DNA from: Anthoceros angustus
Lineage: Eukaryota > Plantae > Anthocerotophyta
DNA length: 64,000 nucleotides
Reading direction: 5' to 3'
Assembly (NCBI GenBank): GCA_010909165.1
Contig: MU008170.1
Location: 1,690,772 to 1,754,771 of the forward strand
The notes beneath the pieces are model-generated. The model was not told the DNA's origin. It saw only the letters and a program-made list of their open reading frames with translations, and did not search any database. The first letter of the stretch is position 1; the number at the start of each line of letters is the position of its first letter. Both the position numbers and the translations under genes were made by a program. Positions 5,745 through 64,000 of the stretch are shown here, piece by piece.

Positions 5745-7696
5745 CTAGTCGACCACTGCTGGGGGTACGTCAGCAAGGTCAATATCCAGGTCGTCCAACC
5801 CTAAGCTGTCACCCCCTGATCCCCGCAGCGCGAAGGCACCCTGCAGACATTTTTGGAGTAAAGATCCAACCTCGAACAGCCAATCCTGTTTAACGTCCAG
5901 GACCATCACGTACCTCCTGCTGCAGCCGTACTTCCTCAGCTCGTGCTGCCTCTTCTGCAAGAGCTACCCTTTGCCTAAAAGATCTGGCCATTTCGTCCGC
6001 CTACGAGTTCAAAGTAACCAGAATGAGTGTCAGCCGACAAACCTAGCTGCAAGACCAGCCCAGTCATACACGACAAGTGAGGCAAGGCAACCCATACCTT
6101 CTCATAAACAAGTCCTGGATTTCGGAGCATGTCACCAGGAGTCGGCTCCAGCTTCTTGGTGGACAAACTAATCCTGCCTCTTTCCCTGTCTTGGCTGAGA
6201 ATCATAACCTGCAGACACTACCTGTTAGTAGTGTGCCCACCGGTACACTCCAGAGAAAGGACAAGACAAAAGCGAAATGAAGAGCACGCCAGAACCGAAG
6301 AGAATGTACCTTCAACTTATCTCCAGGTTGGAGGACAGTCTCCACGGTAGTGATCCGGTCATGGCTGATCTGGCTGATGTGCAACAGGCCACTTACACCT
6401 CCAATGTCAATGAAAGCACCATATGGTTTCACCGACTGCACAGTACCAACAACTATCGATCCCACTCCGTATGTGTTCTGGCTTTCAGCAGCGGCCTTGC
6501 GGTTGCTGAGAACAAGTCGCGTCCGCTCTTCATCCACCTCAAGAACCTTAAGTGGAATTTCCTTATCAATCAAGTCCTCTTGATTTGTCCTCTGCATTCA
6601 AGTACAAACGGTGTCTGGTCACGACACGATGCAACACGATGCTAGCCCAATGCAGTATCAGAATCACCGCGCGGTACCATTCAGAGCCTGGAAAATCCAA
6701 CTCACCGCAGAAACCTGAGAAAAAGGCACAAATCCTCGTAGCCCCTCCACTTGCACAACTATGCCTCCACGATTAGCAGCCAGCACCTGTGCAAATATCC
6801 ATGAACACGCCAAGTCAAAGCAAACTCCCTTCAGATCCCCTTCTCAATGGAGGTGACCTCATCCAGCCCTTACCTTGCCTCTGATAGTGATATCGTCGGC
6901 TTCAACCTGTCTGCACCGCTCCCACGACAAATCATACTGAAACTTTTTCAAACTGAGTATCAACCTGCCATTATCATCGTCATCACGAATAATGACAAAC
7001 TCCTCCTCCATACCCGGAGTCAGCCCTATCTCCTCTACCTTCTTCAGCTTGAACACACAGGCCTCTTGCAACGGCAAGTAGGCCGGTGCTTTTGCACCGA
7101 TATCAATCAATGCACCGCCGTAGTCCGTCTTAAACACAACTCCCTTCACCTGGAATCCAACACAACCATTACAAACCAAGAATGGTGACTGACTATCCAT
7201 CATCCAATGCCCACTACCACGCATCCATTTAGGGTTAGGGCAGCAAATGCAGCACAAGGAGACGCATTCCATTCCACCACAAAGCTCCAACATCCATCCA
7301 TCCATCCTCCTGGCTCGCCAAAAAGCGTACCGTGTCACCAACTTCGAAGTTGAAATCATACTTGGACAGGGCATCAGAAAACTCGTCGTAGGTGAATGGC
7401 ACTCCCTCCAGGGGGCTCTGCAGGGCCCGCATCCACCGCTCCTCCACTTCCTGCATTAGGCTAGCGTCTTTCGGCTTGGCGCGCTCCAGGGAAGCCACGC
7501 AGTGCACCCGGGATGGAGCCCTGGCAGCGGCAGCTGCCTTCCCGACGAACTTCCTGCCGAGGAATCTGCTGTTGCACAGGCCCATGGAGGCCTTGGGAGT
7601 ACCGAGGAACGGAGATGGCGAGTGCGAGTGAGCCGCCGGCTCACGGAACACCCCGACCGAGGCTGCGGCCACGGACTGCGTGGCGACCGCTGCCAT
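5745..7696 (-). CDS. PRPS1: Plastid 30S ribosomal protein S1 with transit peptide, multi-exon
   Basis: ATG at 7696 (MAAVATQS.. transit-like). S1 repeats [59 protein letters not shown] and [23 protein letters not shown]. Final exons [30 protein letters not shown]. Confidence 0.96.
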
Positions 7697-14714: not shown

Positions 14715-17578
14715 TCATAATATAGCTGCTGTTCCCTCGTTTTGGTTGAGTTTCAAATGAATGTGGCCACCGGCCTTCACAATATAGTGCCAGGACCATG
14801 AACCTTGACTGGGTATTGGTTCCAAGGTCTTACAAAAACCTGTCCACAACACCAAATCGAAAAATGTCAATTCCTGAAGCACTACGGATAAGCAAAACCC
14901 AAGCCACTCTGAACGATATGATAATGAGCATACTCTTTACCTGCCTCAGACCCAGTGACCCGCATCCTGAATCCATCAGGCACTCGAAAACTTTGAGGCC
15001 CTTCAAACACAACGCCAAAAGCCTCAAACTCAGAGTTTCCTTCCAGTACTATCTCCAGTGACTCAAATCTCTTCATTTTCCGCTGCCAAAAAACATTTTC
15101 GGGACAGTTCCAATCCACCCCCTTGTTGACAACTTGGACTCTCTCCAACCTGCACCTCCCACAGCCATCTCCGTATCGTAGTAGCATTTCCCCATTCCGT
15201 GCCCTGGATGCTGAGCCCATGACATTATCAGCATGCACTATCAGGCTTCCATCAAGCTCTACATCCTTCCAGGAAAATTCTGCTATTTCCAGTTGTAACT
15301 CTGAACCTTCGGCTACGGAGCCCCCACGGATCTTCTGGCGGATCACATCCCAGAGCGGTCCTAATGCTGGGTGGAACAGTACGACAAAAGGAGGTGCGCT
15401 GTCCACATAACAATGGTTATTCTCCATCTGCGGCATCTTCACGCCACAGGAAGTAAGCAGATCAAACCCATTCCGGGTAACGTCTAAAAATGATCCATCG
15501 GGAGTCTGATGCAAAGTCTGCTCATTAGGCTTCCTCCTCCTCTTCGCTGAAGAAGTAACCTTCCTTCGCTGATTATAAGTTATAAACGTATCCAAATCCT
15601 CCATCAACTGGGGTGAGCGTCGAGAGCGAAACTGATTTACAAGAGAGTCCGCAACATTTTGCATCGTGCATTCCAGTCTACCAGCAAGAACACTGTGGTG
15701 TTGCCCCATAGAGTCCTCGAAAGTAACAGGTTTTTTCAGGTTTAAGATCATGCCTGGCAATGAAGCAGAGCACCCACTGGAAGCCACTTTCTCCACAGCC
15801 GCAAGATCAACAAATAATACATTCGTGTTGGCTGGATACTGGGCCTCCATGCTACCCGGAGAGACGGGCACATCGGGAATCCCAAGCTTGTTGAATTCCG
15901 TGTACTCAATACAGGTGACAGCATATTCCCAAGTGCCATCCCATGTGTTCCTCTCAACCAGCACGTTCACACCCTCGGCTGTCCCCACATTCCTCTTGCA
16001 GCTCGCAAAACCAAACTTTTTGTTATGATGAAGCCCAATACCCGATAGGGCAAGAAGCGTTACATCGGTGCCCGCCACAGGATTGCTAATCTGTCTGACA
16101 ATAGCTGCTTTCCGGCCCTTCTCCCGGAACCATCGGAAGACACCAGCATCTTTAGCCAGCTTCCAGATCACACCATGACCCCCGGGTTTCACTACTGCTG
16201 TCAGTGGCCCGCTGGTCAACCATCGCCCATCTGCAGCTGACACTGTGGGCACCAGCGGCTGCTCGAAAATTTTGAAGTTGCCTCGCCCACGGCCAAACCA
16301 ATCAAAGCTCTCACACAGGGCCTGTACTCTGTCGTTGTTTTTCTTAGCTGCACTCGACATGATGGCAACTGGGATCAATATCTGCTCTCCAAAAACCTTG
16401 AAGTGCAGATACTCTCTTGCTTGCAGATCCCGCACGAGACCTTCCAGCAAAGTCCTCCCACAATACGGCAACATGGCCACAGGCAAACACTCCCCAGTCA
16501 CATCATCCACAAGCCCCAGGCGGTCACCTGCACCGCCAAGAGGGTATATTTCACCCATTTCCGGCAATCCCTGGAGACCCCAGCTCGCAGCTTGGGCTGC
16601 ATAAGCTGCATTCTCCGACAGATCTGGCCCTGAAGGAACGTAGAAGCACCTGTTATCAGCACTGCAATGCCCACTCATGGCCTTAACGGCCTTCCTCTTC
16701 AACTGAGAGTTGTTGATGAGCTCCAAGGCTGCCACCTGGTACCCCACAATCCCTCCGATACAGTCATAGAATCTCTCCACTCTAGCCAGCACACTGATAA
16801 ACTTAGACAGTGCCAGATGCATCTGGCTCGAAACACCATCATCATGCCCTGCCCAGCTGCCCCGTTCCAGCCGCTTCACATCAAGCTTCCCCTGTGTCTT
16901 CTTCCTCCCTGCACCATCCCACCCATCAATCATCTGCGCAAGAACCACAAACGCTTCCTTCAGCAAGTGACCCTGGAACTGAGCCGAGCTGCTCCTCACC
17001 ATGTCACCATCCCGTCCCCCAGACCCATCCAAGTGCACGTCCTGCCAGGAAAACGGCACATCCAGAACATGCTCCTGACCCGCAGCGACCAGACACTTCA
17101 ACAGGTAAAGCTCCTCCGCATCCAGAACATGCATAGCCAACACCGCAGCCGGCTGCACGTAAACACTACCACCTGCCCTCCCAAAAACAGCCTGCACTCT
17201 CCGACAAGTGTCAAGCACAGCCACCTTCTCCTCCAGAGTCCCCAGCTTCAGCAGCCTCCTCTGCAACTCCTTCAGGTCCTGGATCTCCTGAACCAGGGCC
17301 TTGTCCCTTCGGCCCTCAGCATCCACCGGAGGAGACACCACCGGCGGCACGGACACCAGGGGGGAGGGGGAGATGCTGGAACCAAGCCGTGGCTGCGCAA
17401 CGTGCAAAGCAGCTCCCCTCTTGAATGCCCTAGGCTCCTTGTTCTGCCCCGCAGCCGAGGCCCTGAAGACCGTCCTTCGCAGCCCATCATCCGTCAGGCC
17501 AGAACCCAGCTCTCCAGGACATCTTCCGCACAAATGCAGAGGCGTTAATTTCACAGAATAAAATCCCACGCCAAACAT
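14715..17578 (-). CDS. UGP3: Plastid UTP-glucose-1-phosphate uridylyltransferase 3 (sulfolipid pathway), 2 exons
   Basis: ATG at 17578. Exon 1 (17578-14941) holds PLGGAGDRLGL, KPGGHG, PANTN, GRLECTMQN and QTPDGS. Intron 14840-14940 is GT..AG. Last exon GFCKTLEPIPSQGSWSWHY..AAIL*. Confidence 0.93.
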
Positions 17579-55770: not shown

Positions 55771-58700
55771 AAGACTCTATGGTTGGATCTGGAGCATCAC
55801 AGGCATAATACGAATCTTTGAAATATTTGGATCTTGTTGGAGCATCTCGGGCATAAGCCACGATCTTTGAAGTGTGATGATGTCATGTACATGGCCCATG
55901 GATGGCCGCACATGACATGTATACATGTATGCATGTGTGCCATGTATGCATCGTATGGAGATGAAGGATGACATGTGATGTGTGGACATGTGGCGGTGAT
56001 GTGTCATGGCGCATGCAATCTATATGCATGGATGCATGTAAGGCGGTGCTATGACGCATATATAGATAGATTTATATTAGAAAATACATAAAAATCATAA
56101 ATCAAGGAAAAGGACGAATAGGCTGTTAAACACATAAAATATTATTATTTGAAGGCCAAGGAAAGTAGGATTATAAAGTGCCCACCATCGATATGGGTGG
56201 ACACTTCATCGAGAACTCTGGGGTTTTGCCTATATATGTAGGCACCCGCCATGGATTCTGGATTGTTGATGTTTGTCTTGTTCTAATAGACAGCCATACT
56301 TCGTCCTACTGTCTTTGTCTCCTAGAGGTTCTTGTGGTTCGTTGCATTGTCGTTGGGAGAATTTTCCTTGATTTCACCACATCAACAATCCTCTTGTTGG
56401 GGACTAAGATATCTTGGAGGAGGCGTGGCGCTGGAGATTGGAGGAGGCGAGTGTCCACCATCCAACCCAGAGGCAGTGCGATCCGAGAAGGTTGAGTGTT
56501 GCAGAAGGCAACAAGAGATAGGCTGATGTTTTTCTGATGGACATGAATTCTGCCATTGATTATACACAGCTTAGGTGTGGTAGTCTCACGATTCGAGTTA
56601 GCGTATGCGGAGAAGAGCACACATACTGCTTTGTGGATAGAGGCGGTGGATGTACTTTTACGGCTAGCTGGTTGGGCTAACGGTGGAACAATTTGCCTTT
56701 GACAACATCCGCAAAGCGTGGTGCATAGGAGAAGTAACCATTGATGGTGTTCCCGAGATCGGGGTGGATCGACGAAAGGACACTGCTCTTCATCGGAGAA
56801 GTGCACGGCGTCTACTACTACTCGCCATTCAAGAGGACACGAACAATACGAGACAACGCCCATCACAAGGAGACAGTTCGGCGATTGGGAGAGTGCAAGA
56901 ATGGAGCTTGAGTTCACACCAAGTAAGAACGATGTCTTCACAGAAAACATGGAAGCATGTCTCTTGCGATTCGAGGAGAAGTTTCGTTGGGCAATGGCGG
57001 AAAACAAGATGAAATACAAGGACGAGTTCACTCGAGGATGGCGTTCATGAAGATGTCATCCTACCTTGCGGTGAGGCTCTAATGTATTACAGAGATGAGA
57101 AGGTGGGATCCCAAGGTGGCCGAGAAGAGAAGCGTGCAGGAGGCAGCCAAGAGGGGTGGTTCATTGCCCCCGACGAGGACAAGCTCGAGCATCCGTGGAC
57201 TTGATGTTCGCCAAGTTAACCACCATGTTTCCTACAGCTTCGCTGGAAAAGATCCAGGAATTGTCGAGGTTTTCTTTCAGGCCTAACGAGACATTGCGTG
57301 CATCTTACCTCAGATTGAAGGTTCTAGTGGAAGACACGGATGTCAAGACGATGAGGGAGGCTGCCGAGATCTTCATGGCGGCATTGCCCCGCCGACAAAG
57401 AAGGAAGGTGATGGACTCACGCATGGAGCGATGGGAGAGATATCTGATAGACGCCTATCAAATTGCGAGAAGGTGCTCAAAGGAGATGCAGTAAGCCAGG
57501 CTTACTTGGAGGATCACGGAGTCGTGAAGAGCCCTTCGCAGCACGGGTCTGGAGGACACGGGAATTCCAGGTTTGTCCCAAGGTACCGATCAGCAAGCCC
57601 GATCCTCGGACATGGCAAGCAGCCACATGTGCCGAAGGAGAGGCCAGCTAACAATGCAGGCCAAGCAGCTGTGAAGTGTGGCAGAGGCCGTGGAGCGCAC
57701 AAGGCGTCAATGCGACTACAAGCGTGGTCCGAAGGGCGGGAAGCCCTGTAAGTCTTGTGGCGGATGGGGTCACATGGAGGCGTGTTGGGAAGCTCATCCA
57801 GTCTGAAGCCCAAGCTTGCATCGAGAAGGAGAAGGGCAAGGGCCCAAGTCGTAAGGCTCTCCTCGGGCAAGTGGAGGAGCTCAAGAAGGAGATGGCCAAC
57901 ATGGCCCAGCGAGCAGGATTTTGTTCTCGACTCATGAAGATGAGGCGTTTGGCATGATGGCGGTGCGCAAGAAAAGAAAAGGCTGTTGACTTTGGTGAAG
58001 GCGTCACAAGGGAGTGCGGAACGGAATCGACCAAGATGCCGAGAGTTTCGTCGAGAAAACTCCACGGTGTCAAGATCGGTCGAGACGTTGAGGCGTTCTT
58101 TGGACAAGGCCATGGAGGTGCTCGCAGAAGTCTTGTGGATCCGGGAGTGAAGGGCAACAACTTCAAAAACATCATGCGAGAATGGCTGAGAAAGGAGCTT
58201 GAATCCGCAGGATCTCTTCCTAGTATGGCCGGGTGTGTGTGGCGAGCATCCGATGCCGAGGAGCGAGGTGAAGGAGGTGTTGCCATGATTGATAACACAG
58301 ACGACGTGACCTTTGATGGCTATGCTCCAAGACGCGTGCTTGAACACAGGAGCGGATCCGATCTGGGAGCACGGTGCAGGAGGCACTAAAGTCAGACACA
58401 AGCTCGTTCGGCGGCGTGAACATCACCACCTCTGCGTACCAAGGGCAGTGCGGGAATGACGAGGAGGCCCGTGAAGATTGAATTGAAGCGCACGAAGGAT
58501 GCCAGATCGTTGAAGTGAGATGTTTGGTCACCGGTGCAAAGACATATGATGTCTTGGGGTCGGACGGAACTCACCTCCCGCCATGGGGTTGATCCCTTTG
58601 CATGAAGCTTTCTCTCCATTGGTGGAGAGGAGATTTCACGATGTTGCAATTCCTCTAAGGATGAATAGGAGTGGTGGCAAGAGCGGGGCGAGGATGACGG

Positions 58701-58959
58701 CGCCATGATTGCCCGGTGCTCGAGTGAGCATCGACATGAGATGTGGGAGGAAACGCAGGAGTTATCCTCTCCGGAGATGCCGCCAAGAGAGCGAGAAGGT
58801 GCTCAAGGTTGTGCGCTCGATATTTGGATCAAGCGAGGGTTCGAAGAAGGAGGATCGACCGTGGAATCTCACGACACATGTCCCGAGAGGTCGATCCGTA
58901 TGAGGCCCTGCCAAGTCGGAGATCGACGATCGACGATGCTCTACGATGGAAGGTGGGTC

Positions 58960-59770
58960 AAGGCATCCATTTGTTGGAGCTCGCTGGAATCGGCGGTGGC
59001 GGGTTGCGTGTGGCGTCAAGATATGCAATATACTGCGTGGAAAAGGATGAGAAGATTCGGGGCCAGGGGTCGAATCTCGTTCGCAACGATCCAACATCGA
59101 GCGAAGCGATTCGGTGCTCGAGGCGTGAACACGGTTGGGAAGCGGCTAGAAGCCTTGTCAAGCCCGGTGGATATCGATCGCGGGATGGGAATGCAAGACA
59201 TTTTCGGGCAGTGAGGCAAAGGTGAAGGCGTTTCGTTGGCGAGCTCGCACGAATCACGCGAGAAGTCCAGTTGCGAATCCACGATGTTGGTACATTCGAG
59301 AGAATGTGTGCGACCATGGACAAACGTCCAGTTAGGGCCCTATGAAGAGATTCGGGCGTGGTTCGCAATGAGTTGATCATGGACGCGTGCGGTGTGGCTC
59401 ATATGCACACAGCTTCGCGATTCGACAAATGTGGTCTGGACGGAGGTGCTCGACAAGACAGAATTTGACAACTCGGCGGAAGGTTGGATGACATCCTAGA
59501 GTTGGGAAGGTGCTCACAATGAAGAGGATGGACAAGTTGCCATTTTACCTGAATCGAGTAGGGGAAGCGAGGGCATGGCCAACTCGTGAGCACACCGCAA
59601 TCTTATGCCCTTGCAGGAGGAGATGGTGTGATTATTTGAAGGGAATGAGCTTGAGAGCTCAATGTTGAGGAACGCGAGCAAGCGATGGGCTTTGCCAAGA
59701 AGGACACTCGGACCATGGGCATCACAGAATCACAAGGTGCGGGATGCTTGGACAGCATTTGACTGCGATT
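58960..59770 (+). pseudogene. C5-cytosine DNA methyltransferase domain inside the gypsy polyprotein (frameshifted as assembled)
   Basis: Motifs in canonical order: I GIHLLEL(F)AGIG (58962); II YCVEKD; IV IAGWEC(Q)D (59177-59200, catalytic Cys kept); VI YIRENV (59291-59308); VIII DA..GSYAHR.R (59382-59420); IX EEREQAMGF (59667-59693); X MLGQ(A)FD (59744-59763). Confidence 0.82.
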
Positions 59771-62549
59771 AGGTGGTGGTAAGCAGGCTTGGCGTTCCAA
59801 CTTCTGCAAGAAGGAAGCGAAGCCCCTCCAACTCTAAAGAGGTTCCTAAGCAGAGGAAGATGAGTCATGCGGAGAGATTCAAGATGGCCTGTGGATCTTG
59901 AATCTGTACCAAGAGTGTGACGAAGAGGTTCATGTATGGCACATTGCGTAAGATGTGAGCCCGGAAGATAAGCGAAAATCATCAACATGCTTGAGAAAAA
60001 CAAGGGTGCTTTTGCATTCTTGGAAGGAGCTGGCGGTATGAGAAGATCAAGTTCAAAGTAGTGACGACTCATGAAGAGCCCGTCTTAAGGAGGCCGCCTC
60101 TTCAGAATGGGAGATTGTTGACAAACGCTGTCAAGAGTTGTTCGCGGGGTTGATAAGAAAATCAAGCTCTCAATATCTTATGCTCTACCGCTCAAGAAGG
60201 ATGAGAACGGTGAATGGAAGGACAGGAGGATGTGGCGACTACCGACCTCTAAACGAGGTGACTCCTATGGAGCGGTACCCCATGCCTACTCAGACGAGAT
60301 TTTCGATGCCATAGGTAAGGCAAAGTTCTTTACCACTTGGACTTCCAGCTTCAACCAAATTGTGATTGAAGAGCGGGACAAGTGCAAGACAGCTTTGGGA
60401 AGGACCAGCTTTGGGAGTGGGAGACAATGCCGTTTGGGCTGAAAAATGCTTATATATTTCCAAAGAATTGCGGATCTGAGGCTGGTGCCATTTGTGCGTT
60501 GCTACATAGATGATATCCCGGTCTTCAGTGAGACAATCGAAGAACATATGGAGCATCTAGAGATATTGCTACAGAGGTCAAGCTCAGTTTGAAAGCTCAT
60601 CCTAAGAAATGCAAGTTTGCTTTCCAGCGATCGAGTATCCGGGGCATGAGATAGTACCGAGGCATCATGCCTCGGTGGCTAAGGTGCAGCCGTGATGCAA
60701 ATGCCTAGACCAAAGGATGTAGCCGCTCTTAGAGCCTTCCGGTTTGGTGAACTATTACAGAGATTTATGAAGGATCGGTTCACGTGTAAACCTCTATGAT
60801 GTTGAAGAAAGACATTGTGTGGAAATGGGACCAAGACCGAGTTGGCTTGGCAAGATCTTGGACCGGTTGGCGGAGAAGCCTATCTTGGCCGGGCGAATTT
60901 TGATCACCCTTTCACTCGTACCGGAGAGAATTGAGGTGGAGCGGTGTTGTCACAACATGGTGCGAGATGGTGTTGAGCGAGTGATAGCTTATGCAAGCCG
61001 ATCTAACAACTCCCAAGTGAACTACTCCTCATATGAGGGAGAGTGTCTTCCGGGTAGGCGATTCGCATTTCGTGGTCTATCAGATGGAAGGCGTTTTCAC
61101 GGTCACAGATCACCAGCCACTTCATTGGTGATGACCAACATGAAGTTGAGTGGTAAGCTAGCTGTGGGCGCCGCATCCAGTACGATATGGAGATCGTGCA
61201 GGCGAGGCAAGGTACATCACAATGCGGATGGGCTAAGCAATCACTGAAAGTGACAAGGATGTCACGAGCTCGGCAGATGAGGGGCACGTAGATGGTGCAC
61301 CCGGCAGCTTCATGGCACTCATGGCGGGATAGATGATCATGAAGAAGGACATGTCGGCAGTCCGTGGATGTTTGGAGACATCCTCAAGCCATACGATTCT
61401 TGAAGGAAGGCCGCTGCAGAATGATGAAGCAGCTTGGCTAAACTCGGGCGTGGCCGATACTCATGGGAAGATGGTGAGTGCACACGCCAAGGAGAACTCG
61501 TAAGGAAAGTACCAAGTCCCGAGGAAAGAGTGGGCATAGTGACCAAGGTGCACGAAACCCTTGGCCACTTTGGTGTGAAGAGGACACACCACATGTTGAA
61601 GAGTACTTCTGGGGATGTGCGATGTCGAGAAGGTGGTGGCTAAGTGCTGCATGTGATGCGTCAAAGCTAGATTTAACACCGTGATGTGGTGTTGCACTCC
61701 CTACCAATCGGGCTATTCTTTAGATGGTCGGTTGACCTTATGCGAGCTTCCTCTCACAAAGCAAGGTAACCGACATTGCATGGTCATGATTGAGCATTTC
61801 TCTAAGTGGGTTGAAGTAGCGTTCTTCCACGGAACTCGCATTACACCCAGAGCTTTTGCAGTGTGCTCACCGATTTGGGAGTTGCGGAGGTGCTCACAGA
61901 CTGTGGTAACGAGTTTCGAATTCACCTTGCTGACGAGTCTCATTGATCACGGAGGACATCGAGGATCATCCACAGCCGATGGCTGGCGTAAAGGCTAGTG
62001 CAAACCTTCAAGGATGCACTAAGGAAATCTTGCATCTTGTGGAGCCCAAGTGTTGGGATGAATTGCTCCTTACATCGTGTTGGGGTGCAGGTGTGCAGCG
62101 CTCTTGGAAGTTTCACCATACTTTTGTTATTCGGACGTGCAGGTTGCCGAATGTGGTGAAGGACACTTACTCCATCCCTTGAAGCAAAGATGCAAATGTG
62201 TGTGCGAGTTCAAGCGAGGCAGTATTTCAAAGAATTCTTCCCATGGCTATGGACAATTTGGTCAGGCCTCGGGACCGGTGAGGTATGCTTATACGCGGGG
62301 GGGCTCGTGGAAGCCCAAAGCCCGCAAGTTTGCATCTGGAGATTACGTGTACTTGCAGCACAGGCCTGCAAGCACGTTAGATGTCAGCACAGGGAGGCTT
62401 ATCTTGAGAGTTGTCCAGGTTGGTGAGCAAGGTGTGGTTGAACTTGAAGGAAGAGATGGCAGAAGGTGCAAGGAACACATGAAGCATTTGGCTCCATGCC
62501 ATTTGCCTGATCTGGATACCTGACGTGCCTCGGACACAGGCGCCACCAG

Positions 62550-62695
62550 TTGCCTGTGAGTGTGGACACTGGCCCAGCGAAGAATTCATGTTGCTATGTG
62601 ACAGGTGTACCGTGGTTACCATCTGTTTTTGCCTCAAACCGGACGGTGTTCGGAAGGAGAATGGCTATGTGAGCAGCAATGTGCTAAGTGTGAAC
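62550..62695 (+). other. PHD finger following the gypsy integrase
   Basis: ACE.CGH..EEFMLLCDRC.RGYHLF(C)L....EGEWLCEQ.C matches the C4HC3 consensus across one or two indels. Confidence 0.8.
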
Positions 62696-63179
62696 TGTGG
62701 CTCTTAGGAAGGTGATGGTTGTCTTAAATTCACACACGTTGGAAGCTAGCTTGAGTTGGCAAGAAGAAGGACACAAGATGCTTGGGGCCAAATTCACAAA
62801 ACGGGATCTTGCACATGCTAAGACGAGTGTTGTTGCGAAGCGATTACTCGCATGTGCAAGGAATTGTGAAGAGGAATTACAGGCGTCTGAGGGAGCAAGC
62901 ACAAGGGTCTAAATTCCTACCGAAACGAGAGACGAAATTGGGCGCACATAGGCTGAGGGAGCATCTCATTTTGGAAGAGGAACCTTTGCATGCCTGGTGA
63001 TCGGGCGCGTGAATTCCTCACACGTGTTTCTAAAGGTGGTTTGTTGTTTGGAGGCTGGATAGGCAGCGTCATGGTGGAGGCCGTTTCATGCGTGCATAGG
63101 AAGGCGTAACTTGACCACGCCTATCCAATTACGGAAGGTGAGCGCCGAGGAGGAGGTGCCACTTGGCAGTCAATCAAGC

Positions 63180-63725
63180 CACTACAAGAATCGCGGTGTT
63201 TTACAAGCGCATTTACAACGTAATTTACAACCTCACGTTGTAAAACGGGCATTTACGTTTATGGCGGCGACAACTAGGTTGTAAAAATCTGACGTGGCGG
63301 GCAAGGTTGCCACGTCAGCAAGTTCTGACGTGGCCGCCCGTCACCTAACGGACGGGTAAGGTGTCCGGGTAGCCGTTTACAACGTCATTTACAACGTTCT
63401 CGTTTACAACCTAAATGACAAGCGCCATTTACAGCGTGGTTGCCTTGTAATCTAGGTTGTAAAATAGGTTGTTATTAGGAGGTTGTGGTCGGCGGCAACT
63501 AGGTTGTAAAGTGGGTCTATTTACAACGTATTTTACAATATCGTTACAACCTCATTTACAACCTTCAAACACCCTTACTTTACAACGTCATTTAGCGTCA
63601 TTTACAACGTCATTTACAGCGTCGTTTACAATGTCGTTTGCAGCGTGGTTTACGTGGTTTACAAGGTCGTTTACAACTTGATTTGCAACCTCATTTACAA
63701 CGTCATTTACAACGTCATTTACAAA
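63180..63725 (+). mobile_element. CACTA (En/Spm) transposon terminus with subterminal repeats
   Basis: Begins CACTACAAGAA at 63180, followed by many TTTACAAC/GTTGTAAA motifs in both orientations. Confidence 0.85.
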
Positions 63726-64000
63726 CCCGAGATGTCGTTTGGCACAGGAATCGGCGATTGCCTCCACCTTGGTGGCATGCGGCGAGATCGTGATCCAATG
63801 ACCCAAGTACAACACCTTTTCCAAATCGACACTTCCTGGATGGGCCTTCAACCCTAGCCGGATCTAGCAAAAGGCGCTCGAAGATGTAGATGCTCCTCAA
63901 AGGTATTCTTGAAGATGATGACATCATCAATGTAGCACTTGGCGAAATGCAAGTCCTTGAGCTCATTGTCCATGTACCTTTGGAGCTGCGTTGGCGATGT
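63726..64000 (-). mobile_element. Second Ty3/gypsy reverse transcriptase fragment, running off the window
   Basis: Minus strand QRYMDNELKDLHFAKCYIDDVIIFKNTFEEH..HP.KC.F..VLYLGHWI..SPHATKVEAI. Confidence 0.85.

Follow-up and report, generated by a model that had tools for sequence, protein, structure and literature searches.

A frameshifted C5-cytosine DNA methyltransferase domain in a Ty3/gypsy retrotransposon of Anthoceros angustus

Retrotransposons that carry a C5-cytosine DNA methyltransferase (DNMT) were described by de Mendoza et al. in 2018 (PMC5890265), the precedent that the original prediction for this locus had rightly named. In the available text of that paper, the gypsy type (Gypsy-Dnmt3) is described from Klebsormidium only, and purifying selection on the DNMT (Ka/Ks <0.2) counts here as a mark of the KnitGypsy-Dnmt3 type. 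The same text describes SymbioDIRS-Dnmt3, which methylates CG de novo in yeast and is the basis of a model of cDNA methylation, and SymbioLINE-Dnmt. EpiLTRs of Cymbomonas and Euglena carry a DNMT sister to DNMT4, together with DAM and a chromodomain, according to the available part of a preprint (bioRxiv 10.64898/2026.05.21.726589). Concerning land plants, the available text of that preprint and of PMC12344493 speaks of “streptophytes” and names no land plant, and the tree figures may include such sequences. Element-borne DNMTs in bryophytes go unmentioned in the available text of PMC6317226, PMC10952607, 10.1101/363937, PMC9516144 and PMC11982613, as does a PHD or methyltransferase for Phygy/Selgy in that of PMC6317226, while a PHD in green-algal gypsy elements was already noted in PMC9940879. 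Our literature search, which covered few subscription papers, found no published report of a land-plant Gypsy-DNMT3 element.

The element studied here lies in a stretch of 64,000 nucleotides of the Anthoceros angustus assembly, called the window, to whose positions all coordinates refer unless a locus is named. Like KnitGypsy-Dnmt3 of Klebsormidium nitens, it has an intronless Dnmt3-related DNMT in the gypsy polyprotein region, and some of its relatives show the DIRS-like split repeat layout given for KnitGypsy-Dnmt3 in the legend of Fig. 4c (PMC5890265). The host is a land plant rather than an alga, and in most relatives of the window element an in-frame stop separates the DNMT from the reverse transcriptase (RT), whereas the DNMT of KnitGypsy-Dnmt3 lies in one ORF with RT. 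This likeness is drawn from a text description whose available part gives neither the domain order nor any PHD (PMC5890265); the named matches included no Klebsormidium DNMT, and only an integrase-PHD fragment (P0054) was retrieved. SymbioDIRS-Dnmt3 and SymbioLINE-Dnmt resemble the window element in bearing a C5 DNMT on a retrotransposon but belong to other classes or DNMT clades (PMC5890265, available text), and their DNMTs and those of the EpiLTRs are captures independent of that of the window family.

A methyltransferase domain between protease and RT

The window element has the Ty3/gypsy domain order, gag-PR-DNMT-RT-RH-INT-PHD, on the + strand, with each coding part frameshifted. Its likely 5′ terminal repeat (A; 55800..56350, limits approximate) is covered by contigs of runs X2 and X3 and has no second copy in the window. 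The gag region (56900..57960, start approximate) was aligned to the gag of the Marchantia protein P0185 over 57207-57962 (score 124) and contains a zinc knuckle, CKSCGGWGH, at 57747-57773. The aspartic protease (PR; 58261..58678) and its catalytic-site region (58340-58360) were placed by alignments to the protease regions of P0185, P0209 and P0238 (scores 79-84). RT and RNase H (RH) occupy 59990..61244, where 202 of 401 residues were identical to P0012 (score 618, 26 frameshift steps), the YIDD motif was read at 60503-60514 and the Pfam profiles RVT_1 and RT_RNaseH matched weakly. The integrase (INT; zinc-binding, core and C-terminal part) followed at 61509..62517 (205/318 identical to P0003; Integrase_H2C2 E=0.0014), and a PHD finger at its C-terminus was aligned to P0002 at 62555..62670, where a single frame matched Pfam PHD at E=0.059. 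The 3′ non-coding end was traced over 62671..62883, as far as the run contigs reach, with X2/X3 cover stopping in bin 62600-62883. About 1.65 kb separate the protease site (58340) from the start of RT (~59990), and about 1.3 kb the end of the protease from RT. The top PDB match of one relative, P0140, was Ty3 Gag-Pol.

Runs X2 and X3, which come from one sample of another organism, covered 55.8-62.9 kb at high depth, DNMT included, and a single 1.3-kb piece spanned gag, protease and the start of the DNMT. Since the DNMT is covered together with the rest of the element, it is part of the family. Cover began in bin 55784-56067 at roughly twice the interior summed depth, contig depth being a weak measure. 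Run X4 gave no cover of the element, which is not evidence on expression. Summed contig depth of X2/X3 over RT-RH (60044-61179) was 74-190, against ~260-790 in other coding parts; this hints at many copies in which RT-RH is absent or divergent and the DNMT is kept, although depth cannot rank the parts. The related locus L021 likewise lacks RT-RH. No second terminal repeat, LTR pair or split repeat was found within the 64-kb window, so that the copy appears truncated at its 3′ side, and no tRNA gene was found there either. Directly after the element, a short array of TTTACAAC/GTTGTAAA repeats (63170-63740), covered by run X1 and not by X2/X3, is likely the end of another transposon, and an RT fragment of a further gypsy-like element on the − strand (63756-64000) leaves the window at its end.

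The stretch at 58960..59770 (+) encodes a frameshifted C5-cytosine methyltransferase within this element. The domain, recognised by frameshift-aware alignments, a family HMM and motifs and assigned to the DNMT3 type by family profile and the fold of a relative, contains about 15 breaks, and its motifs followed the canonical order on the + strand, distributed among three frames. Reading the frames gave a motif I-like HLLELAG (58968-58988), motif II YCVEKD (59031-59048), motif IV AGWEC (59180-59194) with the catalytic Cys codon at 59192-59194, motif VI YIRENV (59291-59308) with ENV at 59300-59308, and motif VIII GSYAH (59396-59410), whose R.R crosses a break. Motif IX, EREQAMGF (59670-59693), reads directly, and motif X MLGQ (59744-59755) is followed by FD in a different frame. 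The Phe of motif I is absent as assembled, and breaks cross motif VIII R.R and motif X in the window copy; all three motifs are complete in relatives. The order is unpermuted, unlike the DRM arrangement. The original prediction had placed C5-methyltransferase motifs in order on the gag-pol strand of a copy frameshifted as assembled, and both points were borne out, with motifs I, VIII and X touched by breaks. Because breaks cut motifs VIII and X, the motif strings given with that prediction are readings across frameshifts. The further claim, that a gypsy element carries its own C5 DNMT within Pol, also held.

A chance match of motifs, or a fragment of a host DNMT inserted once into this copy, could be suspected from the Pfam result, as PF00145 had no match in any of the three single frames of 58.96-59.77 kb. 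PF00145, however, also misses or barely scores some intact relatives (11 of the 13 intact relatives scanned were matched). In a frameshift-aware search, as proposed with the original prediction, alignment to P0140, the top-scoring of 121 references, reached a score of 143, against 35.6±5.1 (max 57) in 100 shuffles, and the best non-overlapping tile among the 142 tiles of the window scored 51 against the same protein. The P0230 DNMT was identical at 112 of 273 aligned residues with 15 frameshift steps. A family HMM matched one unguided frame at 59583-59738 (E=9.6e-9, 324 tiles), its family having been gathered partly with window fragments, and its top match outside the domain had only E=1.7. 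Read with X at each break, the domain scored 84 bits with an HMM of 119 domains whose collection used no DNMT sequence from the window; the maximum in shuffles was 2.2 (44 reported of 60). The domain also recurs at this position across many copies and many species. Shuffle scores and this recurrence together rule out a chance match or a single host-DNMT insertion, to which we give practically no credence.

By profile and by the predicted fold of an intact relative, the enzyme of the window family is DNMT3-type. A 12-sequence family profile matched DNMT3A at E=1e-16, DRM2 at 3.5e-7 and M.HhaI at 7e-6, with no DNMT1 entry among the 57 matches listed. The predicted structure of P0230 (pLDDT 84) matched DNMT3A at E=8.4e-19 (TM 0.82 by target), and DNMT3A/B/C occupied every row of the listed matches to rank 50. 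In 159 full-length DNMT domains, EN was kept in 152 and RxR in 126, and the catalytic Cys, ENV, RxR and the SAM-binding motif were conserved across very deep divergence. Motif IV had the form xEC in 84/159 and xPC in 52/159, so the GWEC of the window is the commonest family form and not decay.

Relatives in liverworts, peat mosses and algae

The DNMT belongs to the family rather than to a single copy, as the original prediction required: beyond the X2/X3 runs, which cover the domain, it lay ahead of RT in 54 of 80 fetched related loci (reverse order in 3, undecided in 23), and gene models of Marchantia have the same order, gag-PR-DNMT and then RT. Among the 120 matches listed for a query seeded with a Marchantia piece, 27 were land-plant proteins, all from liverworts or Sphagnum (Marchantia polymorpha 19, M. 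paleacea 1, Calypogeia 4, Riccia 1, Sphagnum 2), which qualifies the statement in the original prediction that canonical land-plant gypsy lineages lack such a domain; no named hornwort or vascular-plant protein was among these 120. The element type is known from Klebsormidium, and its occurrence in land plants is shown, at the level of sequence, by these liverwort and peat-moss proteins. In M. polymorpha, four ORF1 models of 1278-1281 aa form one cluster, and the motifs of Mp4g09160 are whole. The Marchantia models Mp4g09160, Mp5g06330, MpVg00370 and MpVg00540 and the Calypogeia, Riccia and Sphagnum proteins are unlabelled in public annotation. Gag, protease, DNMT and RT of the liverwort and peat-moss elements are all alignable with the window, from which they differ by GWPC instead of GWEC in motif IV, a longer DNMT-RT linker and identities of only ~40-50%.

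Two layouts were found among relatives, with the DNMT either after the protease, as in the window, or between RNase H and integrase. The second is that of the gypsy elements of Monoraphidium, Haematococcus and Cymbomonas (RT-RH-DNMT-INT-PHD), whose DNMT is homologous and often has GWEC and whose PHD follows the integrase as in the window; unlike the window element, these chlorophyte and environmental elements have one long ORF and a separate RT clade. They form a large family in chlorophytes and aquatic metagenomes (P0050-P0176) with the full order in 86/121, and the PF00145 label is missing from most. In P0148, the DNMT of this family has moved behind the protease, likely a second relocation. 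The original prediction had also joined PHD and DNMT into one writer-plus-reader toolkit. The PHD is indeed present, but because it ends the integrase throughout the clade, it is not a reader specially paired with the DNMT.

Quick trees of 61 (DNMT) and 48 (RT-RH) chosen rows grouped the window with the PR-DNMT-RT class, with SH-aLRT support of 95 and 99, on the same side as the liverwort and peat-moss elements. In both, the window stood apart from the chlorophyte RH-DNMT-INT class and outside the Marchantia/Sphagnum-like subclade; its branches are long, in part artefactually, because the damage to the copy inflates them. The window copy represents a deeper lineage. Median dN/dS among relatives was 0.39-0.63 for DNMT and 0.35-0.46 for RT (38 loci with both, mostly dead near-copies; 76 of 703 pairs saturated), and the sole unsaturated distant pair gave 0.11 for DNMT vs 0.03 for RT. 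These ratios, which come from relatives only, as the substitutions between window and runs are few and near indels, suggest that the DNMT is under constraint, weaker than that on RT.

In the relatives, Gag-PR-DNMT and RT-RH-INT-PHD form two in-frame ORFs split by one stop, as in L062, where ORFs of 1369 and 1047 aa abut. Across the loci scanned (L001-L070), DNMT and RT were in frame at 31/48, and in all 31 the stop stood at the identical place, as TAG or TAA and mostly followed by CARYYN (27/31; L062 5083-5091 and L063 4661-4669, for example). The exact CARYYA, the tobacco mosaic virus readthrough signal (PMC4132726, available text), was present in L037, L061, L062 and L063, which spread over three divergent lineages. 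The stop is therefore likely, judged by its sequence context, a TMV-type readthrough site, with the qualification that a single family of near-copies accounts for 27 of the 31 loci and that only 3-4 lineages are independent. The stop is absent from P0148, in which the DNMT continues into RT. In the window, no TAG/TAA/TGA-CAR was found at 59770-59995, where the junction is unreadable in the frameshifted copy. Our literature search, with its few subscription papers, found no published description of a readthrough stop in these elements. Split direct repeats in the arrangement A-coding-B-A-B (A ~340 nt, B ~115 nt) were complete in four of 18 long loci (L044, L048, L066 and L070), where they stand in place of LTRs in integrase-bearing gypsy elements, and two more loci had A only.

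Breaks in the window copy and its surroundings

Compared with 8 listed X3 pieces, the window showed 322 gap letters and 154 substitutions and was 7.6% shorter in net length. The breaks were mostly missing letters and were enriched at CG and CHG. Among 20 listed breaks, the best-supported of several hundred, C|G was spanned by 6 (6.1% background, p=0.001), and CG or CHG lay within 2 nt of 10 (20.5% background, p=0.003). Homopolymer shortening was rejected as a cause (9/20 vs 55% background).

Long reads can carry base-calling deletions at methylated sites, and we consider it probable that the frameshifts are systematic sequencing error of this kind. The available text of PMC7419231 holds no direct support for methylation-linked base-calling deletions. 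A clearly less probable reading, to which we nevertheless give some weight, takes the frameshifts as real: in a genome where methylated sites are prone to short losses, the copy would be one of a decayed, non-autonomous subfamily, and the DNMT would be dead in this host. The absence of a 3′ repeat fits such decay, as do contigs of run X1 (library type not on record), which matched the window at ≥95% in 13 of 16 pieces at 58850-59900, mostly without the same letters. Run X1 also shares most of the missing letters at 58872-58957, which systematic error would explain equally well. Against real decay, gap openings and mismatches were about equal in unrelated repeats of the window (54/51, 75/74 and 155/135), a ratio far from normal plant decay; gaps concentrated at CG/CHG (84/142 vs 37% background), and host genes in the same window were unbroken, for example in a clean 898-codon frame. 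The damage pattern may map host methylation. Blocks of low CWG at 8-12, 26-30 and 48-64 kb (0.3-0.8 vs genic 1.4-1.9) are indel-rich repeats wherever copies could be compared.

The remainder of the window holds host genes and further repeats. A UGP3-like gene (14885-17578, −; PF25441) has 898 unbroken codons, and its only likely splice donor lies close to the 3′ end; such intron poverty is, to our knowledge, unusual for UGP3. In a quick tree of 38 of 152 rows, in which each 50% cluster had a single representative and bryophytes, ferns and higher charophytes were absent, its protein stood beside a lycophyte (SH-aLRT 90) within a clade that also held two angiosperms (99); Chlorokybus fell outside this clade. 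A gene at 5914-7417 (−) with six exons and introns of ~87-181 nt is one that we take, from its motifs, to encode a plastid ribosomal protein S1-like product. GC was ~50% across the window and 53.1% in coding sequence; these values and the intron lengths agree with those of Anthoceros angustus (genome GC 49.6%, genes 53.3%, mean intron 173 nt; PMC7027989, available text). A unit of ~13 kb is present in about three copies between 19 and 48 kb. Among these, gene-like sequence differs little (94-97% alike, few gaps) and repeat-like sequence more (85-90% alike, about as many gap openings as mismatches).

Possible role of the element-borne methyltransferase

The window holds a broken copy of a Ty3/gypsy element with a DNMT3-type domain between PR and RT. 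On balance, and with only a slight lean over doubt, we favour the view that working copies would methylate new DNA of the element inside the particle before insertion. Because in relatives a stop in readthrough context sits 3′ of the DNMT, synthesis of the enzyme would match that of Gag: leaky readthrough would leave RT and integrase scarcer than Gag-PR-DNMT. The element protease would free the DNMT inside the particle, where cDNA would be the nearest double-stranded substrate, and the PHD of the integrase might steer insertion by reading histone H3. A new copy could then arrive premethylated, and so resemble host chromatin or stay quiet until a permissive stage. This reading is favoured by the position of the DNMT, by the retention of its catalytic residues and by the CG methylation that the unrelated SymbioDIRS-Dnmt3 achieves in yeast. 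Against it, the element is not CpG-poor (0.81 vs 0.56-0.67 in host genes), so that self-methylation has left no compositional trace, although deletions distort the figure. The weaker constraint on the DNMT and the yeast result for the Klebsormidium domain, given below, also weigh against it.

Two other readings compete with methylation in the particle. An active DNMT could work in the nucleus, after or around integration, on the copy, its flanks and its sisters, and so restrain the family while sparing the host, a possibility raised by de Mendoza et al. (PMC5890265, available text). Synthesis at Gag level would leave a large free enzyme pool, and the low CHG of the element (0.69 vs 1.2-1.3 in genes) fits heavy methylation in place; we nonetheless regard this reading as rather unlikely, as host CMT/MET1-type enzymes account for methylation in place and other repeats of the window are equally CWG-poor. 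Gag-fused products are, moreover, expected to be packaged, which would put the enzyme in the particle. Somewhat more doubtful still is a domain that has lost methyl transfer or never had it and whose task in the particle is to bind DNA or to provide structure. Most family members have another residue in place of the Pro that precedes the catalytic Cys, constraint on the DNMT is weaker than on RT, and the Klebsormidium domain did not methylate yeast DNA, a result that its authors call inconclusive; human DNMT3B also failed in the same assay (PMC5890265, available text). The retention of Cys, ENV, RxR and the SAM-binding motif over very deep divergence likewise speaks against a non-catalytic module.

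Methylation in the particle remains the reading that we prefer, and it can be set in a wider and distinctly speculative history, which we think improbable as a whole. An old green-plant Gypsy-DNMT3 lineage with split repeats would have reached land and would persist in all three bryophyte groups, the window being its first hornwort member; in streptophytes the DNMT would have moved before a leaky UAG, with packaging at Gag level and copies inserted methylated.

The role of retrotransposon-borne methyltransferases has been a standing question since 2018, in part because the hosts known so far are difficult to manipulate. The question can now be tested in a land plant, because Marchantia polymorpha, a genetic model with methylation mutants, has full-length ORF1 copies, and the stop with its readthrough context in relatives predicts the amount of enzyme and its place of synthesis. 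Because PF00145 misses many of these domains, they are probably undercounted or mislabelled in inventories of plant DNMTs and in repeat libraries. With the window copy, the Gypsy-DNMT3 elements gain a deeper lineage and perhaps also a further group of hosts. If the proposed history is true, land plants would have an element-encoded pathway of de novo methylation beside the host’s own.
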